Shown one piece after another: positions 7,042 to 47,925 of a DNA stretch of 64,000 bases. The stretch comes from Piedraia hortae CBS 480.64. Lineage: Eukaryota. The stretch's first letter is position 1, and each line of letters opens with the position of its first letter. The notes under the pieces were generated by a model, which saw only the letters and a program-made list of their open reading frames with translations, was not told where the DNA came from and did no database searches. The stretch lies in the NCBI GenBank assembly GCA_010093745.1, contig MU005965.1:1-64000 (forward strand), written 5' to 3'. A program made the translations under genes and the position numbers.

Positions 7042-7412
7042 TGTAGCGATAGTACTCTCGTGGATGACAGTGCGCAGCGGCACGAACTAGAAGGACTTAG
7101 CGATAGACGGAGATCGAACGACAGAAACAGGAAATGTGCAGGTGGGTGGAAGTCAATACCCGTGTCGATATGACAGTGTGAATGACTATCTATCTCTACA
7201 AAGGGACATCAGATAAATATTTTGTACCGGCGGGCCGGTGACATCACGTCGTACACTAGCAGGGTGCATTCGCCATGTCACATATGACATGGCTCTGAGG
7301 GAAAACCTCTGTGAGGGAAAAACCTAGGGCGCAGCCGGTAGTGTAGGAGGTATCGCTGACTTGCTATGCAAGTGTCCCGCATACGCGCTAGCGGCGATGC
7401 TTGAATCGAACA
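7042..7412. mobile_element. Solo LTR, family B copy 1
   Basis: TG...CA ends, 5-bp TSD aaaac on both sides, homologous along its length to 10855-11206. Confidence 0.85.
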
Positions 7413-7960
7413 AAAACAAAGTCACCTTTGACAAGAGTTGTCGCCTTGCTCGTGCGGACGAGGAGCCTGAGACACATGCAAATCAGTCTTCAAACCGCTA
7501 TGGTCCCCTATCACTAGTCGTCCAACGGTGGGGAGTGTTGAGTACTGTCGAAATATGAACCAAGTGGATCTGCCCGAGTCTATAGACTAGACAATATATA
7601 CTAACTTATTTCATGACTATGTGTTCTGATTCTTGGGACACTGTGTAGTAGCCTGGCTATTCTCGTCATCCGACAATGAGGAGTGTGGGGGATTTCCGAA
7701 CGACAAACCATGTGGGTTTAGCCGAGTCTATTGACTTAACAATGAATACCGACTCACTCCCTAATTGTGTGCCCCGACACAATTAATAGTACACCTCATT
7801 GTCAGTCCAACAAAGCGTTGAAATCCAACCAATAAAGCATTGTTTCTTAGTTCACAATTGCCCGACCCAATAACCCATTCTCCATCCCCGAAACAGTCCA
7901 CGGGCGATGTGCATATAAGCTCTCTCCCACTTTCCCTTCTCCCACCCAGAAAACACAAAC

Positions 7961-8401
7961 ATGACTCCCACCACGAACAAAATTTCTTCACGCCTCACTC
8001 AGGTTCGCACAACCCTCACCTGCGCAGTTGCAGAGCTTTACAACCTCACGCAACGCTACACCAACCTGACTGGGAAAGTTAAAAACACGGTCAAGGTAAT
8101 ACTGTTCCTCCGCTCAATCAGGGCCGCACTGGACATTGCTGAGGCACGTTTGCATCATGGAGAGACGCAGATCACGTGGCAGATTGTTATCTTGCAGATT
8201 GTGTGGTTGAGACATGAGGGGTTAGCAGAATGGTTTCAAGATCTGAAAATGGAGGTTGAGTCCTTCGAGACTAAGGGGAATATCGAGGCGGATGTTTTGG
8301 GCGACATGTTGGGAGGTTTGGCGTTGGAGAGTGGGGAGGAGGAGTGCCTTCAATTGATGGGGGAGTTGAAATTTGAGGATGTTGGTTTACTTTATGGATA
8401 A
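7961..8401 (+). CDS. Lineage-specific small helical protein (146 aa), probable paralog of 8881-9291
   Basis: ATG after a pyrimidine/CA-rich leader; N-terminus MTxT..L..xTTL..A..E...L..R(Y/F) shared with the next ORF. Confidence 0.5.
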   Translation: MTPTTNKISSRLTQVRTTLTCAVAELYNLTQRYTNLTGKVKNTVKVILFLRSIRAALDIAEARLHHGETQITWQIVILQIVWLRHEGLAEWFQDLKMEVESFETKGNIEADVLGDMLGGLALESGEEECLQLMGELKFEDVGLLYG

Positions 8402-8880
8402 GCGTACTATTTTCTCCCAATTTTCTGGAGGAGTGGGTGGTAGTCCCATATCTTGTAGTGGGTCGTGCTTGATAAGCTTATTCGTCATAGGGTTTGGAAT
8501 TATAGGTCCGTTCTTCAAGATTGTGACTGCATAGAAATGTACACAGAAACCTCTTCCTTCACACAACCGCCGCATTATCCGCTGGCCATGGATTCCAAGC
8601 CTAGCCTAGGGATCATAGCGACACACTTAACCAGGCTAATGCAACAAAGCCTTGTTGTCTCTTGTACTTACAAGACATGCCGCTCCCAAACAAAGCAAGT
8701 CTACAGTATCGCCCAGCACAATGACACAACCCCTTCCCAATAAGGCAGGTCCACACTATTGTCCAGCAACAGTGATCTAGCCAACGTATTGTTCCCACTG
8801 TTATCCCACATTGTTCCAATCCCTAATAAAACGTCCATTAGCCATGCACCATCCAATCCAAACCTTGAATCATATTCCCA

Positions 8881-9291
8881 ATGACCCTCACGTACGAACA
8901 ATTCCCTTTCCAACTCATCGGGCTTCAAACAACACTTGCTCACGCCCGCAACGAAGTCAATTCCCTCAAAGAACGGTTCGAGCAAGCTGCATCATCCATT
9001 ACGTCCATACCCATTCCACAGCTCGCGTATGAAGAGTTTTTGGAGTGTCCTTCCCGGTTCGAGGATCTTTTCGAATCGGTGCAGAGTGCAGTTTGCAAGG
9101 TTGAGAGCGCTCTTAAGAATGGCAATCTGAGCGTCGCGGGTCATACGTGTTTGTTGTTCATTCACATCTTAAGAATGAATCTTGTGGCTCCAGGAAACAG
9201 ACAGAATGCTTCGACAAGCCTACGTGGCATTCATCCAGCTATTGCTTATTTACCTAATGTCTTATACGTAGAGACCCGACAGCTCCTGTGA
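8881..9291 (+). CDS. Lineage-specific small helical protein or pseudogene, probable paralog of 7961-8401
   Basis: MTLTYEQFPFQLIGLQTTLAHARNEVNSLKERF aligns without gaps to the previous ORF N-terminus. Confidence 0.4.
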   Translation: MTLTYEQFPFQLIGLQTTLAHARNEVNSLKERFEQAASSITSIPIPQLAYEEFLECPSRFEDLFESVQSAVCKVESALKNGNLSVAGHTCLLFIHILRMNLVAPGNRQNASTSLRGIHPAIAYLPNVLYVETRQLL

Positions 9292-9963
9292 TGGGCAAAG
9301 TCTAATGCGGCTCGTATGGGTATCCGGAAGCTTTCCCTATTGACTCCCGAAATATATATTGAGGGGCAATTCAATGCAAATTATACGAACCATTTCACTG
9401 GCTCAATCCTTTATGTTCTTGATATGCTGTCGTCTACATCGCTGTTGACGGAAAAGATTTTCGAAGGATGCAGATTATGCTCCCGATCAGTCTGGACGAG
9501 GCTAGGCGTAATCCGGACGTCGGCCCTCATGCAACTACGCCGAATGATCGACAAAACTGTTTCAGCTCAAAGGTCACCCAGCTCGCTGTGAGGCTGCGCA
9601 ATATGCGTGTTGTTATGAGCCAGTGGACCAGTGCGGAATATATAAACATTTTTTGTCACGCTTTGACCGGCCCGCCCCGACCCGAAACAGAACCGGAAGC
9701 TACACGCTTTTTTTGAAGCTCTTTCTACAACGCAGTTACAGGCATCACCGAAGAAATGTCCACACCAGCCACGGGTAGTGGTGAATTCACAGTCCTTGCG
9801 CTTCGGTAGCGCTTTTACTACTCACGTTCTGACTGGACACAGATCTCATGACATATCGCCTAAGCAACCTTCCTTCGTCGCCTTCTTCGGTTCTACTCAT
9901 ACGCCATCTGCCGCCTCTTTCGTCGCAATTTCAACCGAGTCCTCTCAGGACTCCGTACCATCG

Positions 9964-10268
9964 TGTCAAAAGGATGTGGCACCCACCATGACCAGAACTA
10001 TAGATAGAAGTCGAAACTTCTCAGGGTTTTTACCTCTTTAGAGGAAGTTTCCCCTGAGACGGGTCATTGTCTCGTTCATGCTTAAGGGCATAGTTCGCTG
10101 ACGTTGTCCTGGCAAATGCGGTTAGACTGAGGTAGTGTGGGGGAGATGCTGAACCTCACCTCATAGAGATAGACATCTACATTTCACATTTTTCAGTAAA
10201 AGATGAGTGAAAACTTTTGTCGTTGAAATCCACTCCGCTCTAGTCCTCGGAGGTTCACCCCTCCGACA
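9964..10268. mobile_element. Solo LTR, family A copy 1 (opposite orientation to copies 2 and 3)
   Basis: tgtcaaaagg...ctccgaca ends; TSD catcg/cattg; homologous to 27663-27966 and 30832-31133. Confidence 0.88.
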
Positions 10269-10854
10269 CATTGTCTTGTGGGCCTGTTATCTTCGGTCTG
10301 AGCCCAATAAGTGACGGTGATGGTGCGTATATTGTACCACTTTTCCTTCGCCTGCCATCACTAGCGTTCTTACAGCAACGAAAATCCCAACAACCTTGTC
10401 TGGCCTCATCAGGAATGGCGAAGACTTTCTGTAGCGGGTGAGACAGGCCTTGACAGATGTACCGGGCTGTGCAGTGGGGCATTGTTGCCTTTTTTCCATG
10501 CCGGCTGCGTGTATTGTATGGGAAAAGGCCTACCATGACGGAACAGGTCATGTGGACCGCTGAACACGAATGTGTGTGCTGTTTGGTGCGTAGCGTTATG
10601 TGCGCAATGAAAAACAGAGAGTAAGAGTGAGAACACCGTGGAATACAGTTCTAATCTTAGTGGATTAGTTTTACAGGGGCCTCTAGGATACATAAGGGAA
10701 CTGGAGATAGATCCTGCATTTCACCGGCATGATCGGCGCTGCAGTGAAAAAAATCCTCCCATGACATCCTGCAGGTCTTTCCCAACGAATCAGGACCGCG
10801 ACGTTGCCTATTTTGCCACGATACAAGTGTGATCGTGATCAATAGGGAAAACTC

Positions 10855-11206
10855 TGTAGCGATTGGACTCCCGTGGGCGAGGGTGCGCAGCGGCCCGAAG
10901 AGAACGAAGCGATAGACGGAAACAGGGGCAGGACAGATGTAGATGTATATGCGTCAATACCAGTGTCGATATGACAAGTGTGGATGACTATCTATCTCAA
11001 TGAGGGGACGTTCAGAATAAAAATTCTGCACCGGTGGGCCGGTGACGTCACGTCGTGCACTAGCAGGGCGCATTCGCCATGTCACATATAACATGGCCCT
11101 GAGGGGAAACCTCTGTGAGGGAAGAACCTAGGGTGCAGCTGGTAGTGTAGGAGGTATCGCTGACTTGCTATGCAAGTGCCCCGTATACGCGCTAGCGGCG
11201 CCAACA
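10855..11206. mobile_element. Solo LTR, family B copy 2
   Basis: tgtagcgat...aaca ends, perfect TSD aactc. Confidence 0.88.
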
Positions 11207-11357
11207 AACTCCAAATGGAAAACCTAGGGAGCTCCTGCGATGCATGCCACGTGTTCATAGCAACTAGGCTTCATGATAACAAGCGCTACGTGTATGGATA
11301 CCCCAACGGCCATTTCAGTAGTGTGCCTGATTTTGCAAACCACCTACGGTGGCTAGT

Positions 11358-11476
11358 AGTTGAAGGATGTGTCACGTGATGACCATGAACAACGCCCCCT
11401 CATGTATGAAGTATATATAACCATACAATTATTCACATCTCGGTGTACTCAAACCATCAGCTCGTCCCCTTCAATT
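11358..11476. mobile_element. 119-bp LTR-like element, family C, non-canonical AGTT...AATT ends
   Basis: Terminal inverted repeat agttgaagg/ccttcaatt, perfect TSD ctagt, internal tatatataa; second full copy at 28618. Confidence 0.85.
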
Positions 11477-11999
11477 CTAGTACTTAGTCGTGGGCGTCCT
11501 GAGGGTTATGCCGTCCCGCGATGTCCTAGACTGCTTCCTGAGCTGAGACCAGAGTCAGAAGGTAGACCGGCGCGGCGACTTTGATCGAGGGTGTAGACAA
11601 ATCTTCTTGCCGATGGCGGGACTTGTAGTGAGGTTTGGGTACTTCAGAGTAACATTTTTGTCAGAGCTATGGGCCAAAATAATTGCCGGCCTTGCGGAAT
11701 TCAAGCGGCCACAGGAAGTCTCTAACCTGACACACCAAGGAAAATAGCGACATAGCTCCTGGACAATTGTCTATACAGCACTTTAAAAGTACACCCATGC
11801 CGTGCCCATCGGTATTGGTTACAGTGTTTTCACTTCTTTGGAAGGTGCTTCTCGGCGAGCCGGTCCAACTTAACATGCGGATTTGAAGTTGTACTTGTGT
11901 CATCTTTCAAGAAACGATAAAACACTGAAAAAGCCTCCAAAGATCAGCTGTCCGAATGTCGCGTCTGGTTCCGGTGCTCCATACGAATGCACTTCCATC

Positions 12000-12300
12000 C
12001 CAGTTTTCTCGCGCTATATACCACGTCCAGAGACGAAATTATATTCATTTGATAGCGCGTTCGGAACGCTCTCAAATTGTATCATTTCAAGTTTATATAA
12101 TTGATAAGATGCAAGCAGTAGTTTCGATAGGTAAATAACCCTAAGATCTGGGACAATTTCTTGGAGCACTGTACAACTAGACAGACCGATGCTTCTTAAG
12201 CCAGCAAAAATGCGATTAGGACGACACGACGATGTCGACGTACCGGCGTGTGGGTGTACGAACAATATTCTCTTCTTGCTACTACTCCCCACGCCGCTCC
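12000..12300 (+). mobile_element. Possible PIF/Harbinger transposase N-terminal remnant
   Basis: Fragmentary SFDSAFGTLSN...RQTDAS...RLGRHDDV across frames loosely resembles the Harbinger HTH region. Confidence 0.3.
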
Positions 12301-13526
12301 GTAAGTATCCACAAAAGCGAACTAAAAGCGCGTGAAGGGCAAAACTTGTACCTCCGTCCCACAGGTCTCTCATATCACCAATACTTAACTCTCGTTTAGT
12401 CGAAATGGCAAGCGTTTGTAATTTGATTCGTGGGGGATTAATTAGGGAAGTCTTGCTAGTCCCATCTGATCGTCCCCTGGCATTTATCAGCTTTACAGCC
12501 TTTGGGGAGATCGCCCCGGTCGGCCTTTCAAGGTGATAGGACTGACTCACTTGAAAGCTCCGAGTTTGGGGACATCTTGCAGTGAGAGTCTAATGATGTT
12601 TGGGGGTTTATCGCATGTGGCTTGACGGAGCTGCGTTGAACCTAATTTGCGTTAATTTCGGTGAGAGAAGCGGGCATGGACAACGTTAGGAGATTGAAGT
12701 TGCTCATCGCGAGTGGCTTGTATGCGTATTGGGCAAATGAAGGAGCTTGGGCAAATGAAGGAGCTTGGGCAACTGAGCAAGACGAGGAGCTAGAAGGGTC
12801 GTTTGGTTCCGAAAGAGTATGCTTGATGGAAATCATTAAATCATATCCATCGGTGAAGCATAAGCGGGCGGTTAGTCGCCCTGATCGAGTCTCCTGGAAC
12901 GCTATGCTTGCTTGATTCTCCGGTCACGATTGGTGGCACGTATGAGTGGCTGCTGCTCAACACCAAAACGTAGACTGGTTCATCCAGGTGAACATTCTCC
13001 AACCACACGCGGTCCAAATCGCGCCGCAATAGTTTCTATGAGCCCCATATATGCCACATCGGCGCTGGAACTGTCCCGTTAAGTGATGGGGGCTGAGTGG
13101 AATTCTTGACATTAACATACAAGCATGATCTGCAAAAACAAAGTGGAAAGTTGAGAAAGCATTTTCTTCTGAAGCGAAATAATCTCTGGAGTGATTTACG
13201 TGCTAAAGAACGTGGAGTTACCCCCTCTTATATAAGTTGAGGATGTCAGTATGAGCAAGCAGTCAGGATCCCAGTGCAGTTCGATCCCGCCGTTGGCGTA
13301 TCAACATTATCGCAGGCTGTCAAAGCCAGGTACCCAGCACCATCGGAGACAAGCGTTGAAGTCTATCTGGCCTGCTCTTAATAGGGTCACCATAACTACT
13401 GATTTTGTTCTGAATCTATCCTTGTGGCTGTAGTGTACGCTATTCTCCCACTCGGGTTCCCACCTGAGTACGCTGAAGTGTACTGCCTAGGGCGAGAATG
13501 AACGAACCCCTAACATATGCAAAACG

Positions 13527-14070
13527 TCAGACGTTACACACCCCCTTGGCAGCAGGCGTGGAGGCTAATGCTGGACCTTTGTAAGCTTGTTCATACATCT
13601 TGTCTATTGGATAGTTTAGGTGGTCGGTGTCATCAACGTAGTAGAAGACAATCAGTCGACCATCTGTGTACAGACACTCGACTCCTGGCACATGCATCAA
13701 CGCATGAAGCTTCATTTCTGTGATCAACGTGGCTTGCCATATGTTGCCTGATCCTTTGCAGCCATAGAGTGCGCGCTTCTGCCGCAATAGACGATTGTGG
13801 TGGCGATGGCCATCCCGGGAGTGTACTAAGAACGAGACCGGTAGCTGGGCGTCCAGGAAAGCATTTACAGCGTCCATCTGCTCGTCCTCCGGATCAAATT
13901 TGGTCGTGATAGCGGTTAAAGCGTGGAAGACGCGAGCTGCCAGGGTTGCGTCATAAATGTCATGCTCCGTTGCCTGAAGGTCACCGCGGCCACAGACGAA
14001 CTTTAAGTTTGACTAAATGGCCTTCGACAAAGACTTTACTGCGACCTTTGTTGGCGAAGACCCATTTCAG
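13527..14070 (-). mobile_element. Ty1/Copia reverse transcriptase remnant
   Basis: KWVF, RGDLQ, QMDAVNAFL, RALYG, VFYYVDD motifs; frameshifted. Confidence 0.92.
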
Positions 14071-14088
14071 GGTTTCGATGGTAAGTTA

Positions 14089-14380
14089 CTAGTTGATTGT
14101 GCTCGCGAAGGGTCTGATCGGAAATGTCTTGCGCGTGATAATCCAGCGCAGCTCACCTTCATTGCTCGATATCTTCGTGTGGTATAGAATTTCGTGTTTG
14201 TTATTGAATTCACCTAAAGATTCGACTGTAGGGTGCAAGTGCGCGATCAATAACTTCGTGACGTTGCAGAGCACTCTTCTCGGGTAAAGGTTCCGCATCA
14301 GTATAACAGGTGTCGCGACTTTCAAGCTAAGATGGGATGGAGGCAGGGACGAAGCTAAGCTGGCAAGAAATTCTGTTGCC
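14089..14380 (-). mobile_element. Helitron Pif1-like helicase remnant (C-terminal piece)
   Basis: LPPSHLSLKVATPVILMRNL...LCNVTKL...RKTFPIRPFASTIN matches Pif1 LPPH.L.LKVG.PVMLLRNL..LCNGTRL..RRQFP...FAMTIN. Confidence 0.85.
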
Positions 14381-14523
14381 TGTTGTGCAGGTCGCCACGG
14401 AGCGATCCGCAGGTGATGACCCACATCCCTGACCAGGGTTCGAGTACTCAGAGATTTTCTTGTGTAGCTCTAGATACGCGTGTATACTGACACACCTGTG
14501 AGGTGCCGCTGCTTATTAGAACA
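14381..14523. mobile_element. Solo LTR, family F copy 1 (143 bp)
   Basis: tgtt...aaca ends, perfect TSD ttgcc; interrupts the Helitron remnant. Confidence 0.85.
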
Positions 14524-14686
14524 TTGCCAATTCGTGGATAAATCGCCGGCCCGGGCCACTGCCCTGGCAAATGAAATCCAGCAACAGTTTAGCACATTCA
14601 TCAAGAGACTGCCAGTCTGTCATGGTGCTTTATTTCAGAGTTTGTCTTCTTGACATCCATATTATAGCCTCGCAAAAGACTGTGAA

Positions 14687-14829
14687 TGTTCCGATAAGCA
14701 GCGGCACCTCATATGTGTGTCAGTATATACGCGTATCTAGAGCTACACAAGAGAATTTCCGAGTACTCGAACCCTGGTCAGGGATGTGGGTCATCACCTG
14801 CGGATCGCTCCGTGGCAACCTGCATAACA
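14687..14829. mobile_element. Solo LTR, family F copy 2, inverted relative to copy 1
   Basis: Near-identical reverse complement of 14381-14523; TSD degraded or absent (gtgaa/ggaaa). Confidence 0.8.
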
Positions 14830-15229
14830 GGAAAACTGAAGTTGCTCACATTAGCCAAAACGCCGTAAGATGTCGTGGTTTGTATCGCGGTCGAGGGTAT
14901 CCAGGATTGCTTCGTGTTGATTGTCTCAACGTTGCATGCAGTTGTTGTTGGGTCCATGGTTACGAGGGTGGTGTTCTTTGAAAATGAAAGTCTAGGCTAA
15001 ATGGTATGCCAAGTGAGGCAAAGACGGTCGTGCCTGACTGGTCGAGGCACAGCTAAGTCACAGACTGTTTTGGGCTCATGACTAACCGATAACGCCATGG
15101 AAGCAGTTGGAAAGAGCGAGTCCCTAGCGGTTGGCAGTGCACCCACTGGTGAGACATAGAGCGATGACTAAATAAGAATCGGTAATCCCCAGGATCAGGA
15201 TCTGAGTGGATCTTCACAGTTCTCAGATT

Positions 15230-15480
15230 TTTGCCCCTGCATCATCGCTATCTGCTGAGTCACCCGCATGAAGGTACTGGGCCCCACCGTCACCAGATCC
15301 ATGACCAATTCGTTAGTGTCTGCGATTGTGTCGTTATGCGGGTCGAGAATGGCTCGCGTGTCGGATATTATCGTCGGCAGCTAAATTGACCAGTGAAGCG
15401 ACCGACCGTACGACACCTGCCTGATTCATCGAGCCTACGACTAGTTCGCTGCCCTTTGCAATAGCCTCAATCCTCAATTA
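15230..15480 (-). mobile_element. Helitron Pif1-like helicase remnant (upstream piece)
   Basis: TRAILDPHNDTIADTNELVMDL matches the Pif1 RAILAPxNxxVxxIN motif and is collinear with the 14089 piece. Confidence 0.65.
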
Positions 15481-15531
15481 GCTTGAACTTTGTAGGTTAG
15501 ACCCAGGGAGTAACAGCGGATCTGCTAGAAC

Positions 15532-16010
15532 ATGATGGGCAAGCGGGTTAACTTTGCCGCCCACACCGTCATGTGCCCGGATCTCAATAGCCGTATTTTC
15601 CCTCAAATTGACCTATCCAGATCCCGTAACACAGTGGAACGTTGGATCTGCAGGAAGCTGTGCGAGATGGTCCGCTCAAATAGCGTGGTGCGGTTGCCGT
15701 TGAGGAGAATGGGCAGGTAATCCGTCTTGGAGGCAAAACCGCCGATGAGTAGCTAATATTGGTAGTTAATCATCTTGCGCCGTGTGTAGGTGTGCGTGGT
15801 ATACGGCCCCAAAAGATCTATCGACACCCAAATAACGGGGACATTGTCATTATGAAGAGACAGCCGACGCCACACAAGCCTACAATGATGTGCCATCGAG
15901 CGCGAGTGCTTCCAAGGCAGGAGACGCTGCGAATACCCCACGCCAAATGCAAAACATACAATTCTGATTTTGACGGTGACGAGATGAACCTCCACTTTCT
16001 AAATCAGGCT
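15532..16010 (+). pseudogene. RPA190: Fragment of RNA polymerase I largest subunit (active-site region), decayed
   Basis: MMGKRVNFAA, NGDIVIMKRQPTPHKPTMMCHRARVL, YNSDFDGDEMNLHF (NADFDGD motif); stops and frameshifts. MMGKRVN and HKPSMM-type motifs point to Pol I. Confidence 0.88.
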
Positions 16011-17291
16011 TCGGTTTAATGATTTCGTCCCAAGTTCTCGATCAATTGTCCGGTTTTGACAAGGTCGGTGGTAAACTTAGCAGTTTCATCAAATGTAACG
16101 TCCTGAGTCCGCAAAATGCGATCTTTCGTGTATGCAGCAGGTAACTTGTTACAGAAACTGGCACTCATTTTCAGTTATATATCATTGAGATGATGTCGAG
16201 GGATTCGGGGTAGTCGAAGGTGTCAGAATGTTCAGACATCGCGCTTGGGTAGTGGAAGTTTCGGCGAGTTTCGTGTAGCTGGTCTTCCACTTTAGAATCA
16301 GATAAGGTCAGATTTTTGATCGAAACTAGCTGCTTTTTCCGTATCATCCTTCCGGCCAATATCAGATAGCTCGGAAAGCTAGGTGAGTAGACCGATCTGC
16401 TGAGAGTAGCTGTGATTATCAGTGGTAATGATCCAACATGGCCCATTTTGAGCGTTGCGAGGTCCATAGCTTAACCGAACTTATGCGGCTCTTCAAGCAG
16501 TCCAAACTAGGCCAGAAGATCCCTTAGAACTCGGTCTCTGCTTGTCTGTGATCGTCTTTTCCGTATCATGAATGGAGGGTTGGGGTTCGGTTGATTCGAT
16601 CAGGATACTCTGTCTGCACATCATATCAAAGATCCGATTGGGCCATTAAAACGCAGTTTGCGGCAAATAGTACGACATCAAGTGATACCATCCATTTGCT
16701 GCAACTGGGAATGGAAAGCGGTATCGACCGTTACATCTTGGCCGATTCTGTCCTCCCGCAAGCAATAAGACCGAGGGCCTCGGTCAGTTAACAGCCCATA
16801 AACCTTCGAATTAATTGAATGTCGAATAGGGCAATGGGGCCTTTGTAGGTGCAAGTCAACTGGGCCTCATGCACACGCCACCAGCCTCCTGCTGTAATCA
16901 GCATTTTGCCGGACAATATTGCAGCTATGTTAGACGAGATTAGGGAAAGGTTGCTGCTCTTTCTATGTCTCGCATTCTCTTCGAGATAGGAGATTAAATA
17001 GGGCTGCCCATTGTCTTGGCGACGAATGCATGTTTGATCCACTGAGGCGGCAGCATGAGCGTATGACGAGACCACTATGGTGGTACGAAGAAACTCTGGG
17101 ATTTTTGCGACACCATTATCAAATGTGGATGCCGGGTAGAATCGCCGAGGGAGGTCAAAATTTGGTGTTCTAAATCTGCGCTAGCGTTAGCGCTGGAGAC
17201 AAACTTAACCTAAATGGGGAAGCGCTCCGGCCCGTCTGACATCACCTTAACAATCCTACTGTGACAGGACTTTTCACTACCCTGTTCAACC

Positions 17292-18972
17292 ATGGAGTTC
17301 CCTATCATCCGACGGGAAAAGGAGCCGGAAGCCACGTATACCAATGGTCCTGTTACATCCCCCCTGAGTCGTCGCATAGTTCACTCAGAAGAGCGCGATT
17401 TACCCGGTGGTGCCAATTGGACGGTGCAGAAATTTGGCGGGACGTCAGTGGGCAAAGTCGCGGTAGACATTGCAGAGAACATCGTGATGTAAGTCTTATA
17501 TTCGGCCAGACCGGCTGGCGTACTGAACATCCTCCAGTAAAGCGCTCCAGACGCAGCGAATCGCCGTTGTTTGTTCCGCTCGCAGCACTGGAACAAAGGC
17601 CGAGGGAACAACCAACCGTTTGCTTCGAGCGGCGCGTCATGCCTTCGACCCCACGTCAACCGAGTATGAATCTATTGTAGAAGCCATACAAGCGGATCAT
17701 CTCGCTGCCGGTGAAAGAGCCATTCGTAATGAAGCCATTAGGCTCAAGTACGCAGAAGAGGTAAGGCGGGAATGCGCCTATCTGAAGCGCGCCCTTGTTA
17801 GCGCTCAGTTTCTGCGCGCGGTAACCAACCAGACAACGGACATGGTCATAGGCGTTGGGGAAAAGCTGAGTTGTCAGTACATGACGGCCATTCTGCAGGA
17901 TCGTGGGGTAAAAGCTGAATATATTGATCTCAGCGAGATTGTGAACCCAAAGCTTACCAAAGTAAACGATCAGTTTTACAAAGACCTTGCCCATGTACTT
18001 GGCACTAAGATATTGTCGTTGGACAAAGACGCGGTTCCCGTCGTTACTGGCTACTTTGGTAATGTACCTGGAGGTCTCTTGGAAAAGATTGGCCGCGGTT
18101 ATACCGACCTCTGTGCAGCTTTGCTGGCCGTGGGTGTCAATGCCAGTGAGCTGCAGATCTGGAAGGAGGTCGACGGCATCTTCACTGCAGACCCTCGCAA
18201 GGTTCCCACAGCTAGACTGCTTAGTTCTGTTACGCCTTCTGAGGCTGCCGAGTTGACTTTCTATGGGTCAGAAGTCATTCATCCATTCACCATGGATCAG
18301 GTTATTAAAGCGTCTATTCCCATCCGCATTAAAAACGTCTTCAATCCACGCGGAGAAGGCACCACAGTCTTTCCGGATCCGGTGGATGACCTGCAGGTCA
18401 AACGTCCAGGTCTTTTCCGTAACCGATCTGTCTCAAGTCTGCTGGCATCTCCTATGAAATCGCCCAAGCGACCAACTGCGGTGACGATCAAACCCAACAT
18501 CATCGTCATGAACGTGCACAGTAAACGCCGCACACGAGCCCATGGTTTTCTTATGAGCATCTTCAGCACTCTAGACCGCCATGGGCTCTCTGTAGATCTG
18601 ATCTCCAGCTCGGAAGTGCACGTCTCCATGGCATTGCACTCAGAAGGTGTTCTGCTGAGTGGTCAAAATGAAGAGGAGGTCAAAATCGAGTCGGAGAACT
18701 TGAAAGCGGCTGTCGATGAGCTTGCCGCCTGGGGCGATGTTGACCTGGTAGGTGGCATGGCCATCATATCGCTTGTTGGACGTCAGCTCAGATCCATGGT
18801 GGGGATCAGTGGTCGCTTCTTCTCTGCTCTGGGAGACAACGGAATCAACATTGAGATGATCAGTCAGGGGGCAAGCGAGATCAACATCTCGTGCGTGATT
18901 GAGGAAAGAGAGGCAATTCGTGCGCTGAACGTGGTTCACACGCACCTTTTTACATTTTTGCAGGTCGATTAG
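17292..18972 (+). CDS. HOM3: Aspartokinase; intron 17489-17537
   Basis: VQKFGGTSVG, AVVCSARS, IGRGYTDL, WKEVDGIFTADPRKVP, ACT domains; spliced frame checked. Confidence 0.97.
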
Positions 18973-18974
18973 AG

Positions 18975-26616: not shown

Positions 26617-26740
26617 TATTATAATTGTGAGCAGATGTGTACCTGCATACAAATCTCTACGGAAAACTAGTTGACGCGTGAAGTCGAGAGCCGAGCGCCG
26701 GTTACTAATAATGCGCGTAATATACCGCATATTCACAACA
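26617..26740 (-). mobile_element. Solo LTR, family D (124 bp)
   Basis: Perfect TSD ttcac; reverse complement of 27456-27583. Confidence 0.88.
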
Positions 26741-26798
26741 TTCACCCCTGCCAATTGGAAATGTAGCACGCTTTCACAGCAACTCGCTTCAGGGGGAG

Positions 26799-27120
26799 TG
26801 TTGCCATGAGGCCTTGTTGCTATGAGCATATGAGCATATATGGCTAGACTTCCTAAAATTTTTACCTCACAGAGGATGTTTTCTCTGGGACGTGATCATG
26901 TCACATGATGTGATCACCGGCGAATGCCGTCCGTAACGTGCCAGAATGAGGGGCAGTCGTACCAATTCACCTCAACCTCTCGCTTCCCCAATACAACATA
27001 AAAAATACAATAAGACAATACAATTAAATACATGAGCATAATCACAGACACTGTTCTTGTTCCCACTCTCTGTGCCCATATTGCACATGACGCTGCGCTA
27101 GATCACCACCTCCATATTTT
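26799..27120. mobile_element. Probable solo LTR of another family (right end unresolved)
   Basis: Starts tgtt, carries the shared two-hairpin motif at 26852-26927, followed by an A/C-rich tract. Confidence 0.5.
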
Positions 27121-27455
27121 ATCAAGATTAAGTCAAGCAGAAGCCCATGCACCCGTTGGGCACCTCGCATGGACTACCTTGAAGAGGTATCTGCCTTAAA
27201 AGTGATGGACAAGTGTTGAAGCTGTGAAAAGCTCATGCCAGTCGTCGTATCATGTCCACTTGAAGAACCTCGCACGTGAAGCGTGCGAGCATTGTTCACA
27301 AGGTACTTACGTCGGCGGCGTGGCGTTTTAGCGGGCGCTTCGTCGGGAACATCACACCACAGGTAAATGCACGAATGCATCATTCCACGATCTGCAAACA
27401 TTTGCTGCGCTTAGCAGTGAGAACTTGTCATCATTTAGGTTTCTCGCTATGTTAG

Positions 27456-27662: not shown

Positions 27663-27966
27663 TGTCGGAGGGCTGGACCTCCGAAGACTAAAGCGGAACG
27701 TAGGTCAAAGACAAATGTGTGCACTCAAATCTGACCAAAAGGTGAATGTAGATGCCTATCTCTATGTGAGGTGAGGTTCGAATCCTTCTCCACACCACCT
27801 CAGTCTAACCGCATTCGCCAGGACAATGTCAGCGAACCATGCCCTTAAGCGTGAACGAGACAATGACTCATCTCAGGAAAAAATTCCTCTATAGAGGTAA
27901 AAACCTTAAGAAGTTTCGACTTCTATCTAAGGTTCGGGTCATGGTGAGTGCCACATCCTTCAGACA
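27663..27966. mobile_element. Solo LTR, family A copy 2
   Basis: tgtcggagg...ccttcagaca; TSD cctat/cctag. Confidence 0.88.
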
Positions 27967-28392: not shown

Positions 28393-28817
28393 TGTGAGAC
28401 GGTAAACCTTCTCATATAGTATTCAGTCAGGTCGCATCTGCAAGCTTAGATAGAGGTCGATGCTTTTCAGGGTTTTTACCTCCATAGGAGGAAGTATTCC
28501 TTGGGACGAGGCACGGTGCCGTTCATGCTCTGTGCGTGCTCGTTGACGTGGTCTCGATGAATGCGGCTAGACCTGGGTCAGCTTGAGGTGAAGTTCCGCA
28601 CTTCAACTCACAACATCAGTTGAAGGATGTGTCACGTGATGACCATGAACAATGTCCACTCATGTATGCAGTATATATAAATACATATTTATTCACGTCT
28701 TAGTGAACTCACACTATCAGTTCGTCCCCTTGAACTACAGCACCTCAAAATGCACATACACACACATAGCATAACATAAATGTGCTCACACACCATTGCC
28801 CACTAAATAATCTCACA
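28393..28817. mobile_element. Solo LTR (tgtgaga...tctcaca) containing a nested family-C element
   Basis: 7-bp terminal inverted repeat, cgagt before and 2 nt after the end, shared hairpin motif at 28468-28567. Confidence 0.75.
28618..28736. mobile_element. 119-bp family-C element
   Basis: agttgaagg...ccttgaact; TSD acatc/acagc; collinear with 11358-11476. Confidence 0.85.
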
Positions 28818-29516: not shown

Positions 29517-29831
29517 ATGTCTCAATTTGCAGACCCGGTCATGACGGCTGGCTCCATCTTGGCGTTCTCCAAGGCGAATGGAGAATCAACCCTCACCACC
29601 GACGCAGAGGATAGCCCGCCTCCCAGCGCGGAATTCCACGGCAACTCTCGCCAAGCGGTCGTGATGCGGGCGTACATGCATGCCCCGTCAGACCCAATCA
29701 GGTCGACGCTGAGGGTCGGCGACGTAGTCCGCGTGGACGACGCCTCGGGGTCAGGCTGGACGGTCGAGACCCCTAGCGGAACAACGCTCATAGTCCCTAG
29801 GGACCACCTAGAACTCCTGATGGCAGGTTAG
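29517..29831 (+). CDS. Small protein (104 aa) with a divergent SH3-like domain
   Basis: AVVMRAY...LRVGDVVRV...GSGW...LIVPRDHLEL fits the SH3 pattern; GC-rich coding look with a CA-rich leader. Confidence 0.6.
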   Translation: MSQFADPVMTAGSILAFSKANGESTLTTDAEDSPPPSAEFHGNSRQAVVMRAYMHAPSDPIRSTLRVGDVVRVDDASGSGWTVETPSGTTLIVPRDHLELLMAG

Positions 29832-30831: not shown

Positions 30832-31133
30832 TCTCGGAGGGGTGAACCTCCGAGGACTAAAGAGGAGCGGATATCGACGACAAAAGGCGTCAGTCAACTT
30901 TAACTGAAAAAGTGAATGTAGATGTCTATGTCTGTATGAGATGAGATTCAAATCCTTCCCCCCACTACAGTCTAATCGCATTCGCCAGGACAACGTCAGC
31001 GAACCATGCCCTTAAGCATGAACGAGACAATGACCCGTCCCAGGGAAGACTTCCTCTATAGAGGTAAAAACCCTGACAAATTTCGACTTCTATCTATAGT
31101 TTTGGTCATGTGGGGTACCACATCCTTCTGACA
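30832..31133. mobile_element. Solo LTR, family A copy 3
   Basis: tctcggagg...ccttctgaca; TSD gcagc/ggagc. Confidence 0.85.
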
Positions 31134-31994
31134 GGAGCAGTTTCCACGACGGCAGTCGACGGCGTGTTTCAACGCACACTTCTTTCAAACGAAGATACGC
31201 AAGGGGGCGTAGATTTTAGTAGATCTCCTTTAGACGAGTAATGAGGGAGACAAGCCCAGCGGGGGTCAGGGGCAGTTCAACGACTACGTCGATCGATGGC
31301 GTATTTCAGGGGGCAATTTTCACTGTGGCTCAGGTCGCGTCGCTGGCCAGGGAATGGAGGTATAAAATCTCGCACATGGGAGTATTGTCTGAGACGGATG
31401 TTCTTCCAAAGAAAGAGGTTTTTGACTGTCTTTTTGGGTTTGTAACATCTTGATGCCGTAGAGGTCAAGTCATCAGTGGTGATGCCTATGCAATTTTTGA
31501 ATGTAAACAAATAAATATTCTTGTGTTATGCATTCGGAATCCTGTTAAGTAGTCACAGCTAAATCGTTTAGGGGGGGAATGAAAAACTCGCGTTTGGTTG
31601 CTTAACTTATGAAAGCATAGGACATGGAATGGAAGGAACTGGAATTTTCATCATGCAACCGACTTCCTCAGTTGTTCAGTCTTCACCTTCGTTCTAGACA
31701 TGATACCCTCGAAGAAAGATCCTTGTTTACGTGTCAAAAAGTGATAAAAACTCTCTTTCACGAGTTAACCCCTTTAGGTGGGGAAGAAGCCATATATCCA
31801 ACAACCTTCGAGGTGGGACGCCAACCTCAAACCTTATCATCCCTTTTTTTTTCCCCACACCCACACGAAGCAAAACAAAAAAAACTCCCATCACTATAAG
31901 TAATACACAGGGTATATCAACTCCTTTAAAAGACACACTTTCCTCGAAAAATTCATCGTCCCACCCATCTATTCTCCTTCCCCTTTATAAACCC

Positions 31995-36356: not shown

Positions 36357-36442
36357 CTCCCCTTAGCTCAGCTGGCAGAGCGCAAGACTGTAATGGAAAA
36401 GCGTTCATCTTGAGGTCCCTGGTTCGAACCCGGGAGGAGAGA
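36357..36442 (+). tRNA. tRNA-Tyr(GTA) with a 13-nt intron (36394-36406)
   Basis: Acceptor ctcccct/aggagag+A, D arm gctc..gagc, anticodon stem caaga/tcttg, GTA at 36390-36392, ggttcgaac T loop, poly-T terminator; 73 nt after splicing. Confidence 0.95.
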
Positions 36443-44445: not shown

Positions 44446-46565
44446 ATGTCTTTAACAAGCTTGCAACAAGCAGGCTCCTCTAGCTGGGGCTTGCTGAAGC
44501 AGGCCACTTTCCCTCAATGGCTGGGTGATTCCAAGACGGCTCCTTGGGGCAGCTGCACGGTGTCCAGCTGCCACTACACCAATCCTGACCAAGTTCCTGT
44601 GACGGCGGACACACGCAAATATGAATTCACAATTTCACGCAGTGTCATATACGCTGACGGAGTTGCGCGGGATGTGATTCTCGTCAATGACCAGTTTCCG
44701 GGCCCCGTCATCGAGGCTAACTGGGGCGATTGGGTGGAAGTCAAAGTGAATAATAACATAACCTCTCCAGAAGAAGGCACTTCTTTACATTGGCATGGCC
44801 AGCCGCTGGCCAATACACCGTGGGAGGATGGTGTCAGTGGCATCAGCCAATGTCCCATTGCGCCAGGCACAAGTTTCACCTACAGATGGCGAGCCGAAGC
44901 ACACGGAACTTCTTGGTACCATGCCCACATGAGTGCTCAGTATGCGGCCGGTGTGGCCGGCCCAATGATAGTCTACGGCCCAACCTCACAGGAATACGAT
45001 ATCGACGTCGGGCCTGTGATGCTCAGTGACTGGTATCATATCCCCTATTTTGCCCTCGTCAAAGATGCCGTTGGCAAGAACTATTCGGTTATACCGCCAG
45101 TCAGCGATTCTGTCCTCATAAACGGCCGTGGACAGTTTGACTGCAACAGTCCAACGTTTGACGAGTCCAATGACTCTCTTTCGTCGTCTGTCAATTCTAA
45201 TCTGACCTGGACCTGCGTGCCCAACGCACCCGTGTCCCGCTTCCGTTTCCAAAGTGGCAAGGTGCACCGCTTGCGTCTGATCAACCACGGCGCGAACGGT
45301 GTACAGAAATTCTCCATTGATCGCCACGTTCTGCGGGTCATTGCCTATGATTATGTCCCCGTCGAGCCTTACGACACCAAAGTCGTGACTCTCGGCGTTG
45401 GCCAACGTGCAGATGTCCTAGTCGACGGGCTCGACGACCCGCAGGCAGCCGTATGGATGCGCACTTCAGCCCCAGGCGGCGAAGCATGCGGAGGCTCCAG
45501 CTCACCAGACGCAAAGGCGGCGGTCTACTACGAATCCGCCCGGGCAAACGCCGATCCGGGTACCGACAACGACGCCAGCTGGGCCGATCAGTTCCAATGT
45601 CGCAACGAGGACCTTTCGTTGACCCGTCCATCATATCGAGCCGACCCGATCCCATACACGGACAGCTCCGTCGTAGTCCAGAACATCGACCTCACCCTCG
45701 TTTTAAACGGAACCGGTCACTTCGAGTTCCGCGTTAATGGACGCGCGTTGCGGGCCAACGAGAGCGATCCCCTCCTCGGCATAGTCGGCAGCAAAGAACT
45801 AATCGGCAAGGACTGGAACGTCTTTGACCTGACTCCCAAGTCTCCCAAAGCAGTCGTCTTCAACCTAACCAACAACATGCCACTGGTAAGTTCCTTTAGA
45901 CCGCGAAGCATCCCTCTTTCTGACCAAAACCCCCTCAACAGACCCACCCCTTCCACCTCCACGGCCACGAATTCTCCATCCTCTCCCTCGGCGGGCCCAT
46001 AGAATTCAACTCCTCCGTCCCCTCCACCCCGAACGGCATCTCCCCCGACTTCGAAGCAGCATGGACCTGGCCTGGCGACGTTCCCATTACCAAAAACCCC
46101 ATGCGTCGCGACAGCGTTCTAATCCCGCCCTACGGCTTCGCCGTCGTACAATTCGAACTCATAAACCCCGGTGTCTGGCCCTTCCACTGCCACGTCGCTT
46201 GGCACCTCTCGGGCGGCCAGGGCTGGAACGTTGTCTATGGCTTCCCCGACCTACATGTGGAGCAGGCACTTCCGGATGAAGGGTCCGGTGACCCTAATGC
46301 CGGGAAAGGCGGTACGCAGGACGAGGGCGGCGCGATGTGGGGACATGACAACTCGAATATCCCCAAGAGAAGGGGGAAGAGGACTGCGCCTGTGCCGGGA
46401 CGAATGGCGAGTTATAGCGGGAAGATGAGTCTTATGAGTAAAGAGGCGCAGGATGGAAGGGGAATTCAAGATATGCCGAGTGACTGGCTTGAGAGTACGT
46501 GTAAATCGTGGAGCGATTGGGTGAGTAAGAATGGTGGGTCGGGGATTATTGATTCTGCTTCGTGA
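44446..46565 (+). CDS. Laccase-like multicopper oxidase; intron 45886-45941; 5' end uncertain
   Basis: HWHG, WYHAH, HPFHLHGH (after splicing), WPFHCHVAWH; C-terminus IDSAS. Confidence 0.93.
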
Positions 46566-46852
46566 GTGGGTTTTGCCCAGTGTTGGGGGGGGGGGGGGAA
46601 AGGACGGGTTAATGATTTTCTTTTGATGGGTTTTGATACATGCATTTACGTAGCGGGTATGTATTTCTTATGGGTTATTGGACGACGATTTATGTTTCGA
46701 GAAAAGTCTATATGTATTTGAAAAACCCTCGCTAGATTGCACCTAGAGAATGCTGTCTCGTGGGCCTCGTCCCTCTGTCTCCGCGCGTAGAACTTGATTT
46801 ACAGGACCCTACTATGTGTAGGTTCAGAACGGTGAATGTCTCAATACTCCTC

Positions 46853-47925
46853 CGGCCGGCCGCCCCGCCTAAATCGCTAGGGTAATCTTTAGAAAAAGCT
46901 AGGGTATCTGACTGCATTAGGAAGTTCGCTAGCCCATTTCAGTAAAGTGCCGCGGAAGGACTCGTACGCGTTATCTGATTAGCTACCTGATGCCCCCTTC
47001 TGGAGAGCCTGTACGAGGCGGTGGCATGTCGATCGTATGATCGACATTTTTGTCGCTAAAAGATTAGTTGTTTTCTTGTATATAGTTCCGCCCGCCGGCT
47101 CGGGCGGGCAGTCGCGTCGTCTTTCTTTCATCGCTGTTTACTGTCCACACCAGCGATAGCCTGCTACTGTAGCACGGTGAGTCCTGGGTCTAGATAGGGT
47201 GTCTGAGGCTTCGCAGGGTTTTCTACCTCACAGAGAAATTTTTTCCTGTGACGAGGTCACATAACTGCGTGGTCTCAGCGAATGCGGTCCAGCCCACTGT
47301 GGGTCTGCGGGGGATGTTTCCAGCGTTACCTCTCTGCATGTAAACACACGCCCACACAGACACACAATTACACACACCTTTTCGCCCAGACTTCACCTGC
47401 ATGTTCCAGTGCTCTCTCTATCTGAGACTTAATTAGAAGGAAGCATATTTCGAGTCCTAGATACCAAACGGGCAAGCAGGTAGATGATCAACTTAACGAG
47501 CCAACACAGCCTGTGGTACGCGCGGGCGTGGGAGGAGAGTTAGAGCCAGTCCGGGGCAAGCACAAATCTCTGTAGCTTCTGCGGACGAAATGTACGGTAG
47601 GCATTTGCACAGTTATGAACCGAGATGCAAGCCTGGCGTGAATCGCTCTTGGAACCCCTATGTTGACCTCGTGGGCCAGAACAGGCCGAGGATACCCGGG
47701 ACATCGGATCCTTGGTATCCCGGAGCCTACCTGCTTGCCTTAGGGGTGTATTGACGTGATTTCAGGCTCAGATACAGGCAATGGCTACAGCAATGGGCAA
47801 GAGGTGAAGATGGTACGGGTCCTTCCGCGACACCATTCCAGTATTGCTTGGCGACCTTCCCAATGCGGTTAGATACCCTAGCTTTTTCTCAAAATTACCT
47901 CAGCGATTTAGGCGGGGTGCCGGCC
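46853..47925. repeat. Pair of about 115-bp inverted repeats (46853-46967 and 47813-47925), probably transposon fragments, flanking another LTR-like remnant
   Basis: cgccccgcctaaatcgct...aaaaagctagggtatct versus agataccctagcttttt...agcgatttaggcggggtg; shared LTR motif at 47214-47287 between them. Confidence 0.7.

Follow-up and report, generated by a model that had tools for sequence, protein, structure and literature searches.

The window, a 64,000-nt stretch of DNA from Piedraia hortae CBS 480.64, contains eight copies of a two-hairpin motif within short repeats of five families (Table 1). These repeats had been taken for LTRs in an earlier note on this DNA, and TG..CA ends together with 5-bp target duplications in the A, B and C copies bear this out; the duplications are exact in A7, A11 and C26 and match at four of five bases in each of the three B copies. 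The ends of the B10 LTR coincide with contig loose ends at 9964 and 10268, and the A11 LTR shows a deletion close to the 5' end when compared with most of its family (contig loose end at 11200). Copy number is high, with 826 contig pieces of run X1 on 9900-11260 and a run X1 depth of 950-20000 over the LTRs, against about 14 in unique flanks. Neither gag nor pol was found among 146 ORF pieces around the repeats, the sole related ORF match being an unlinked RVT_2 fragment (13530-14012). Same-strand LTR pairs were 81-83% identical, no closer than unrelated copies, and no full-length element with a PBS, a PPT and gag-pol between two LTRs was found in the window. The LTR types had also been called otherwise dissimilar. 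Five families can indeed be told apart, but their dissimilarity was overstated, as sequence is shared beyond the motif: B' is 73-77% identical to B across about 128-133 nt, and A and B have two further blocks in common, ATAGNAAGTC upstream and TAGAGATAGA..CATTCAC downstream. A repeat of a further family, E, begins at about 28616, after the B' motif copy.

Table 1. Solo LTRs, motif copies and hairpins in the window (target duplications or flanks are given as left/right)
Feature	Positions	Strand	Details
Solo LTR, family A (A7)	7042..7412	-	371 nt; TGTT...CTACA; GTTTT/GTTTT
Motif A7	7257..7334	-	hairpin 1: U5 opposite U4 directly between G-C stems
A7 hairpin 2	7272-7293	-	9 perfect pairs, then GAATGC
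Solo LTR, family B (B10)	9964..10268	+	305 nt; TGTCA...CGACA; flanks CATCG/CATTG
Motif B10	10015..10128	+	hairpin 2 = 10061-10113; AAATGC = 10114-10119
B10 hairpin 1	10019-10059	+	8-bp lower stem UCUCAGGG/CCCUGAGA, U-rich internal loop, CCUC/GAGG
Solo LTR, family A (A11)	10855..11206	-	352 nt; GAGTT/GAGTT
Motif A11	11061..11138	-	hairpin 2 = 11076-11097
Solo LTR, family C (C26)	26802..27211	+	410 nt; TG..CA; AGTGT/AGTGT
Motif C26	26847..26936	+	lower stem decayed via transitions (UAAAA/UCUCUG); hairpin 2 = 26892-26921
Solo LTR, family B (B27)	27663..27966	-	flanks CTAGG/ATAGG
Motif B27	27802..27915	-	degenerate lower stem; hairpin 2 = 27817-27869
Motif B'	28461..28573	+	hairpin 2 = 28508-28558
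Solo LTR, family B (B31)	30832..31133	-	flanks GCTCC/GCTGC
Motif B31	30969..31082	-	hairpin 2 = 30984-31036
Motif D47	47208..47294	+	hairpin 2 = 47253-47279; 8 pairs incl. 2 G.U

All eight motif copies were found where, and on the strands on which, the earlier note had placed them, and its consensus was confirmed as CAGGG-UUUUU(A)-CCUC-loop-GAGG-(AAG)UUU-CCCUG-RGAC-variable hairpin-(G/A)AAUGC. GAATGC is present in seven of the eight; B10 has AAATGC, the majority of its family having G at position 10114. The C that precedes this tail is replaced by U in B'. The reported TAGATAG about 20 nt upstream of hairpin 1 (in B, B' and D) and the A/C-rich tracts downstream of the motif (in C, D and B') were likewise recovered. 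In A and C, AU-rich or A-rich sequence follows 50-110 nt downstream. When a covariance model of the eight copies was run on both strands of the entire window with filters off, it returned exactly these copies (61.9-94.5 bits, E 4e-15 to 5e-24), the next-best match reaching 12 bits (E 0.18); since the eight matches are the model's training set, the scan excludes further copies in the window and lends no independent support.

The lower stem of hairpin 1 is G-C-rich, 5-8 bp long and ends at its top in GGG/CCC. Above it is an internal loop in which a 5' U5 run faces a 3' run of U3-6, and a short upper stem, CCUC/GAGG, is capped by a loop of 3-4 nt. RNAalifold, given the eight copies, placed pairs in the lower stem and in the inner CCUC/GAGG stem and left the U-rich stretches unpaired. 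In the 11-pair structure, 84.1% of cells were standard pairs, compared with 42-63% when partners were slid by 1-3 columns. The best-kept letters of the motif are the unpaired U's and the flanking G-C pairs, with T13, T14, T17 and CCTC/GAGG invariant in the alignment. The 5' loop strand is TTTTT(A/C) in six of eight copies (TTCTT in A11 and TTTTCT in D47), and the 3' strand has a run of at least three T's in six (TCTT in B31 and TATT in B'), TTTT being the family-B majority (C>T at position 10051). In the lower stem, the two pairs next to the loop (columns 12-41 and 13-40) are both G-C in five of eight copies (A7, A11, B10, B31 and B'); B27 and D47 have G.U at the pair that touches the loop, and the stem of C26 is decayed. 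Only in family A does CCUC/GAGG abut the U runs directly. The other four families carry an A on the 5' side and AAG, AUG, AAU or AAA on the 3' side between the U runs and the upper stem, and these A-type bases can pair with part of U5, leaving 2-4 U's per side. Covariation in hairpin 1 was not significant (score 0.237 vs. 0.203 in shuffles, reached by 87 of 500), and the inner stem does not vary at all among the copies. Folded alone as a single-sequence MFE structure, hairpin 1 took the expected shape in four of eight copies and showed no strand bias. The change from CCTCT/AGAGG to CCTCC/GGAGG, put forward earlier as a compensatory pair, carries little weight, as the fifth pair in B would close a 2-nt loop.

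The second hairpin, said to change in sequence and length with its fold preserved, does so: it ranges from 22 to 53 nt and pairing is kept in every copy. Its folding energy was -8.2 to -18.7 kcal/mol on the strand chosen in the earlier note and -4.0 to -13.2 kcal/mol on the other, with better folding on the chosen strand in seven of eight copies and one tie. It contains 0-4 G.U pairs per copy and no 1x1 A/C mismatch. Between 0 and 53 of 200 shuffles folded equally well, and no more than 10 did in six of eight copies. Since the better folding comes through G.U pairs on the chosen strand, RNA of that strand appears to be under selection, which supports the choice made earlier and marks the motif as a conserved structured element of that strand. 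Conservation relative to the flanks was a check named beforehand. Within families the motif was 88-94% identical, compared with 75-77% in the rest of the same LTRs; between families identity peaked at the motif (0.49-0.64 vs. 0.04-0.45 elsewhere), and in LTR B summed contig depth was highest in the motif bins (6202-9011 vs. 1731-4165 in the rest of the LTR). The motif is best read as a conserved RNA module of related LTR retrotransposons, of which the window holds only solo LTRs of five families.

The architecture of hairpin 1 recalls that of the ENE, a poly(A)-clamping stability element. In known ENEs, the poly(A) tail of the same transcript is gripped between two U strands through U.A-U base triples, and additional adenosines bind the minor groove of neighboring G-C pairs; deadenylases are thereby kept from the tail and the RNA is stabilized. 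A review defines the ENE as a stem-loop with a U-rich internal loop adjoining G-C pairs (PMC7583470). The ENE of the Arabidopsis LTR retrotransposon Evade/Copia93 is reported to protect the poly(A) tail and to require both the U tracts and the flanking G-C pairs, and RNA stability and transposition are reported to fall when the element is lost (PMC12501189). Some transposon ENEs are described as embedded in the 5' and 3' LTR (PMC13541005). Transposons of plants and fungi have been predicted to carry ENEs (Tycowski et al., 2016, as cited in PMC12501189, PMC7583470 and PMC13541005). Hairpin 1 is a stem-loop with a U run on both internal-loop strands and has G-C pairs next to the U-rich loop that could provide an A-minor platform, features shared with the KSHV PAN RNA ENE and the plant and fungal transposon ENEs. 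It is single-domain, like viral ENEs, and lies within an LTR on what the G.U bias suggests is the transposon sense strand, like transposon ENEs. With the Evade/Copia93 element it has in common an LTR retrotransposon setting, U-rich internal loop sequence and flanking G-C pairs, although that element is from a plant and the present motif from a fungus. Unlike known ENEs, four of the five families have the extra A and AAG-type bases separating the U runs from the upper stem, and these four are less canonical as ENEs than family A. A second conserved hairpin and a GAAUGC tail further set the motif apart from known ENEs. No counterpart of this second part was found in the portions of the ENE literature examined, and hairpin 2 with GAAUGC is an unexplained add-on to an ENE-like hairpin. 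No Rfam family matched the LTR copies, including in narrow 111-nt and 141-nt scans of A7 and B10 at E<=10, and no score came near any gathering score; as the presence of ENE models within Rfam 15 is not established, this counts neither for nor against ENE membership. That hairpin 1 is an ENE is put at slightly under an even chance. The description of the motif as previously undescribed was probably wrong, given that the architecture of hairpin 1 is the one that defines ENEs, and that ENEs are already on record from transposons of plants and fungi, some of them within LTRs.

Other explanations account for part of these observations. An unlikely though serious alternative is that the motif is an R-region or leader structure for replication, with a role in minus-strand transfer, dimerization or packaging. 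Retroviral R regions carry paired hairpins, and transcription starting about 25-30 nt after the TATA-like TATAGATAG would place the two hairpins at the 5' end of R. The TAGATAG upstream of hairpin 1 in B, B' and D fits such a start, as does TATATATAA at the corresponding place in the related E repeat; the RNA strand bias and the conservation fit equally well. One run X2 contig ends at 10125, just past GAATGCGG, which could be the R/U5 border if X2 is RNA. However, that X2 is RNA is a guess, the run also covers unique intergenic DNA (depth 5.7), and an RNA end cannot be read from the end of a contig. A TATA-like box is absent upstream of the motif in family A, the implied U3 would be very short (about 56 nt in B and 82 nt in A), and an R-region role leaves unexplained why the unpaired U runs are the best conserved part. 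The motif could instead act as DNA, as an LTR promoter control region in which dimeric host transcription factors bind palindromes, namely CCTCTATAGAGG and the GTCA..TGAC arms of hairpin 2, as well as the GATA-type TAGATAG blocks, with no need for RNA structure. In its favor, family B has an inner stem that reads as a perfect DNA palindrome, the hairpin 2 arms of A, B, C and D share a GTCA/TGAC-like core, and both A and B have (A)GATAG blocks on the two sides of the motif. Decay should then be symmetric, yet stem G.U pairs occur on one strand only, and the one-sided folding of hairpin 2 and its freedom from A/C 1x1 mismatches tell the same way; its length variation is hard to square with a fixed protein site, and DNA-level control is considered improbable. 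Slightly poorer prospects are given to simple common descent, by which the five families go back to a single ancestor that left the motif as a slowly decaying, functionless remnant. It draws on the LTR ends and the two further blocks shared beyond the motif, on the roughly 75% identity of B' to B and on the non-significant covariation of hairpin 1, but runs against the excess of within-family conservation in the motif and the replacement of hairpin 2 in sequence and length with pairing always retained.

The two remaining alternatives tie the motif to known RNA classes. A module derived from tRNA or 5S, with the T5 run of the motif as a Pol III terminator, is very improbable. Downstream of the motif in B27, the opposite strand carries a B-box-like GGTTCGAA, but B10, B31 and the other families do not preserve it; an ARAGORN tRNA search of the window was negative, and the Rfam tRNA and 5S models had no match to the LTRs at E<=10. 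Parts derived from tRNA are known in fungal LTRs: Cassandra, Helenus and Ajax are TRIMs with 5S- or tRNA-derived sequence in their LTRs, and the present repeats resemble them in carrying a structured module in short fungal LTRs with 5-bp target duplications and many solo LTRs (PMC10886601). Unlike these elements, the motif matches no tRNA or 5S model and has no conserved A/B boxes; the hallmark of Helenus and Cassandra-type TRIMp3 elements, an LTR segment derived from tRNA or 5S and bearing Pol III boxes, was not found. The earlier note had also remarked on a likeness to HDV/CPEB3 ribozymes, and a self-cleaving RNA of this or another small class that processes the LTR transcript is scarcely credible. 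The local likeness is real, in that CCCCUG, a 4-nt joiner, a hairpin and GCGAAU resemble the P1-P4-J4/2 part of the HDV/CPEB3 fold. The fold itself, a nested double pseudoknot with P2 formed from the 3' tail, cannot be built. The would-be first strand of P1 is followed only by UUUUUA and the inner hairpin, where nothing complements the UGCGG, UGCACC or UGCCG after GCGAA, so there is no P2; P1.1 cannot form either, the 3-8 bases between the would-be P3 and P1 are the wrong spacing, and the C before GAAUGC is replaced in B'. Rfam ribozyme searches (4701, 111 and 141 nt, E<=10) gave no match, with no hit to the HDV, CPEB3 or drz models over four copies or in the narrow A7 and B10 scans. A tempting ribozyme reading is thereby corrected.

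If hairpin 1 is an ENE, its U strands would clamp the poly(A) tail of the element transcript, and protection of the tail may leave more template for reverse transcription of the retrotransposon. Hairpin 2 starts 0-1 nt after hairpin 1 and may serve as a spacer stacked on it, returning the chain to the foot of hairpin 1, where the conserved single-stranded (G)CGAAUGC and a downstream poly(A) site or tail could emerge beside the clamp. The whole would form a composite 3'-end module of ENE clamp, single-base joint, stacking spacer hairpin of free sequence, and a GAAUGC that marks or positions, at the clamp's foot, the cleavage/poly(A) site; this is a speculative and rather unlikely proposal. Were it true, the tail would be captured as soon as it is made, with the poly(A) site beside its own clamp, an arrangement that to our knowledge has not been described for viral, cellular or transposon ENEs.

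For annotation, the motif offers a short tag by which one group of LTR families can be recognized. Should hairpin 1 prove to be an ENE, hundreds of LTR copies in a fungal genome would carry a poly(A)-protecting RNA clamp, which would help to explain the high copy number of the families despite host RNA decay, as with Evade in Arabidopsis. It would also add to the ENEs a fungal case that is single-domain, lies within an LTR and has an unusual second hairpin attached, and solo LTRs could donate transcript-stabilizing 3' ends to nearby genes.

All eight copies of the two-hairpin element that an earlier note had listed were found by direct reading on the strands it had assigned, each with the same order of parts. 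The 5' half runs from (C)AGGG through a U run, an A or C, CCUC and a 3-4-nt loop to GAGG; the 3' half continues with another U run (frequently after AAG, AUG or AAU), CCCUG, RGAC, a hairpin of free sequence and (G/A)AAUGC. The CAGGG/CCCUG frame belongs to hairpin 1, and the hairpin of free sequence is hairpin 2. A covariance model (R1), as the earlier note had proposed, was built from an alignment (A3) of the eight copies and scanned over both strands of the whole window with filters off. It returned the eight at 61.9-94.5 bits (E 4e-15 to 5e-24) and no further copy in the window, the next best match scoring 12 bits (E 0.18). Since the eight copies were the training set, the scan demonstrates the absence of more copies and is not an independent test. 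A metagenome scan with the pattern GGTTTTTMCCTCN{3,5}GAGGN{40,70}GAATGC gave eight loci (L001-L008), all without the CAGGG/CCCTG frame; in number about as expected, they look like chance matches.

The window carries fungal, eukaryotic genes (P5-ATPase, RIX1, multicopper oxidase, TIP49, proteasomal ATPase and a Ypp1-like TPR protein), and its self-comparison yielded five motif-bearing repeat families (Table). The proposed location of the motif in LTRs is borne out: families A, B and C consist of solo LTRs with TG at the start and CA at the end. Three of these LTRs have exact target duplications; those of the three B copies match at 4/5 bases, and for the ends of B' and D there are only several 4/5 candidates. 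A survey of 146 ORF pieces in the surroundings of the repeats found no gag or pol next to any copy and turned up only an RVT_2 fragment that is not linked to them and some fragments of genes. Neither same-strand pair, A7/A11 or B27/B31, makes up the LTRs of a single element, since the members of a pair are no closer to each other than unrelated copies are. The families had been described as otherwise dissimilar LTR types. They are instead relatives: beyond the motif they have in common ATAG-N-AAGTC upstream, TAGAGATAGA..CATTCAC downstream, and LTRs that begin alike. GATA-type words (TAGATAG, GAGATAGA(T)AG) stand on both sides of the motif in families A and B, where they might act as sites for GATA factors, as a TATA-like box or as efficiency elements for poly(A).

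Contigs of two coded sequencing runs, X1 and X2, were aligned to 9900-11260 at a likeness of 80%, giving 826 pieces from the first and 333 from the second. Summed X1 depth is 950-20000 over the LTRs versus about 14 in the unique flanks, and loose contig ends fall exactly at 9964, 10268, 10855 and 11200; together, these indicate that families A and B exist in very many genomic copies. Past the B LTR (10268), the loose-end consensus has an agreement of 0.36-0.39 and, compared by eye with primer-binding sites, proved too noisy for use. Contig joints also reveal deletion variants of the module elsewhere in the genome: some B copies skip 10111-10189 and lose GAATGC and a third hairpin (joints at 10110-10190), and one genomic A copy is without hairpin 2 onward (joints at 10974-11136).

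Motif-bearing families and other features of the window
Feature	Coordinates (strand)	Details
Family A		2 copies, 83% alike
Family B		3 copies, 81-86% alike
Family B'		73-77% identity to B across about 128-133 nt
Families C and D		one copy each
A7 LTR	7042-7412	exact 5-bp target duplication GTTTT
A11 LTR	10855-11206	exact 5-bp target duplication GAGTT
C26 LTR	26802-27211	exact 5-bp target duplication AGTGT
GATA-type words	9991-9999, 10164-10174; 7199-7211 (-)	also at the corresponding sites of the remaining A and B copies
Repeat family E	11358-11474 (+), 28618-28734 (+), 34-72 (-)	without motif; stops after about 115 nt
Inverted repeats around C	26615-26740 / 27456-27585	
Inverted repeats around D	46854-46967 / 47813-47925	
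tRNA gene with intron	36357-36442 (+)	Rfam tRNA 49.3 bits; 14-nt insert after anticodon loop; anticodon region GTA
Copia-type RT fragment	13530-14012 (-), in a TE-rich stretch that also covers 14092-14469 (-), 14376-14525 / 14685-14834, 15753-16016 (+)	RVT_2, E 8e-8
Pif1 helicase 2B-domain fragment	same TE-rich stretch, 13530-16016	next to 150-nt inverted repeat (93%)
Isolated RNA polymerase Rpb1 domain 2 fragment	same TE-rich stretch, 13530-16016	E 4e-24
Tandem array, 54-nt units	60315-60584 (+)	inside overlapping long ORFs

Several neighbouring features were recorded. The start of repeat family E (GAAGGATGTGTCACGTGATGACCATGAAC) resembles the 5' end of LTR B, and E has a box TATATATAA at the place where LTR B has TATAGATAG; one E copy abuts B', either truncating it or nested in it. 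The inverted repeats flanking C and D are about 110-130 nt long, 91% and 80% complementary and 700-850 nt apart, and the inner end of the first recurs at window 1-35. C and D may be LTRs that landed in foldback/MITE-like elements, or parts of a composite element. The gene fragments of the TE-rich stretch are probably captured or decayed pieces. The tandem array consists of overlapping 108-nt copies every 54 nt, with 62-82% identity to the reference copy and an extra 61% copy at 60000. ARAGORN called no tRNA in the window, the intron-containing gene found by Rfam included. On the strand opposite to the B27 motif, downstream of it at 27770-27800, lies a B-box-like GGTTCGAATCC accompanied by a short stem that resembles a T-arm; B10 and B31 have not kept the box, and neither ARAGORN nor Rfam called a tRNA there.

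Within families, the motif is better conserved than the rest of the LTR, a comparison that the earlier note had called for. Motif identity is 87/99, 93/99 and 89/99 in the B pairs and 60/64 in the A pair, with the remainder of the same LTRs 75-77% identical (gaps counted as differences). Between families, with one representative of each, identity is 0.64 and 0.49 in hairpin 1, 0.24 in the variable hairpin, 0.54 in GAATGC and 0.04-0.45 elsewhere. The bins of X1 depth that cover the B motif stand at 6202, 6221 and 9011, versus 3411, 2140, 1731 and 4165 in the rest of the B LTR. In family A the bin of greatest depth (20082) is immediately upstream of the motif, which is therefore not the sole conserved block there. 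Both within and between families, conservation ends directly after GAATGC(GG).

The best evidence for RNA structure is hairpin 2, whose pairing is retained while its sequence changes and its length varies from 22 nt in A, 27 in D and 30 in C to 51-53 in B' and B, in keeping with the earlier statement that the fold is kept. A single hairpin is the fold in seven of the eight copies, the lowest-energy fold of B27 being two hairpins. Among 200 dinucleotide shuffles per copy, 0, 0, 10, 53, 1, 18, 4 and 8 folded as well. Folding energies on the strand listed for each copy are -13.2, -11.0, -16.1, -13.2, -18.7, -18.6, -13.9 and -8.2 kcal/mol; those on the opposite strand, in matching order, are -13.2, -8.9, -8.0, -10.0, -9.8, -10.3, -8.3 and -4.0. 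The listed strand thus folds better in 7/8 copies with one tie, counts that are not all independent, as the B copies and B' are kin, and the earlier choice of strand holds. The difference arises because G.U pairs fall on that strand: hairpin 2 has 0-4 of them per copy there, and a 1x1 A/C mismatch, which would be a G.U pair on the other strand, occurs in none of the eight. Neutral decay of a DNA palindrome should give both kinds equally, so the one-sided G.U pairs point to selection on the RNA (or single strand) of the listed strand.

Hairpin 1 is less clear-cut. RNAalifold recovered the lower stem and the CCUC/GAGG stem across the eight copies, and 84.1% of the cells in the structure are standard pairs, versus 42-63% with the partners slid. 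In a shuffle test, covariation in hairpin 1 was not significant (87/500 shuffles scored as high), and its inner stem is invariant. Folded alone, hairpin 1 takes the expected shape in 4/8 copies, without strand bias. Family A retains the lower stem in another sequence (CUAGG / CCU(C)AG, including one bulge), which would amount to two double changes if the alignment is right. In C26 transitions alone have destroyed the stem (UAAAA / UCUCUG), which shows how decay biased towards transitions can look like G-C to A-U 'compensation'. In B, B' and D the lower stem reaches 8 bp (B10: UCUCAGGG / CCCUGAGA) with one base between the hairpins; in A there is no gap. The most conserved letters of hairpin 1 lie outside its stems: they are two U runs facing each other in the internal loop, with G-C pairs on either side. 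In B10, GAAACUUC (10011-10018, the 8 nt immediately upstream of hairpin 1) is the exact complement of GAAGUUUC (10043-10050) on the 3' side of the loop, and is also complementary to GAAGU further upstream, giving a small GAAGU-CGAA-ACUUC hairpin. This complementarity may provide an alternative pairing that closes or opens the U-rich loop; C, D and B' have the complement in a weak form only (CUUY).

What kind of RNA this might be was judged against several known classes. At gathering scores, Rfam matched only the tRNA in the window; at E<=10 it had no match over 26600-31300, which holds four copies. Narrow searches (111 and 141 nt) of A7 and B10 gave only chance-level matches far under threshold: PsrR1 (17.9 bits, gathering 42), mir-2567 (24.7, gathering 79), snoU54, L31 leader, WT1-AS_2 and STnc420. 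The suggested likeness to HDV/CPEB3 ribozymes fails: P2 cannot form, since what follows the would-be P1, namely UUUUUA and the inner hairpin, pairs with nothing after GCGAA, and the would-be P3-P1 gap is three to eight bases. A hammerhead reading of CUGAGAC...GAAU meets core letters that misfit and differ among families; the motif is not a ribozyme. A tRNA-like reading, with the lower stem as anticodon arm and hairpin 2 as T-arm, lacks acceptor pairing and was negative in ARAGORN and Rfam, and a primer-binding-site-like reading of TGGCGAATGCGG finds its TGG only in families A and B.

A closer parallel is the ENE (element for nuclear expression), a triple-helix RNA stability element that clamps poly(A). 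The loop in the PAN RNA crystal structure is described as gripping oligo(A) by five U.A-U and three A-minor triples, and more than 200 ENE-type elements have been predicted, with plant and fungal transposons among the hosts (PMC7583470). ENEs are reported to be strongly associated with LTR retrotransposons (PMC12501189), some being embedded in the 5' and 3' LTR (PMC13541005). The ENE of Arabidopsis Evade/Copia93 is reported to shield the tail from the CCR4a deadenylase and to raise RNA stability, cDNA level and new insertions, its U tracts and flanking G-C pairs both being required (PMC12501189). Hairpin 1 shares the architecture that defines ENEs, an internal loop with U runs opposite each other and G-C pairs at its borders, and in family A its form is canonical (GG-UUUUU-(C)CCUC...GAGG-UUUU-CC). 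In the other families the U runs are separated from the upper stem by an A on one strand and by AAG, AUG, AAU or AAA on the opposite one. In folding of the free RNA, these intervening bases can pair with part of U5, and the triple stack left outside family A would be 3-4 triples. In the ENE descriptions cited here, nothing corresponds to hairpin 2 or GAAUGC. Scripts that scanned for ENE-shaped hairpins proved too rigid, recovering 0/8 and then 1/8 of the copies. From the conserved facing U runs, their G-C bracket and the precedents, hairpin 1 is read as a putative single-domain, LTR-embedded ENE, an assignment held with slightly less than even confidence.

If hairpin 1 is such a clamp, hairpin 2 could be a stacking spacer, conserved only in its pairing, that brings the chain back to the foot of hairpin 1, and GAAUGC could be a linker or a site that presents to the clamp the RNA lying downstream, which may be the poly(A) site itself. 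The stop of conservation after GAATGC(GG) and the end of one X2 contig at 10125 fit this role and prove nothing; X2 is only guessed to be RNA, and its contigs were not used as expression evidence. On the sequence evidence, the motif is real: a conserved and structured element, specific to one strand, that a group of related fungal LTRs carries. Rather than a candidate undescribed element, as first proposed, it would most likely belong to the known ENE class, its second hairpin being an unexplained addition.
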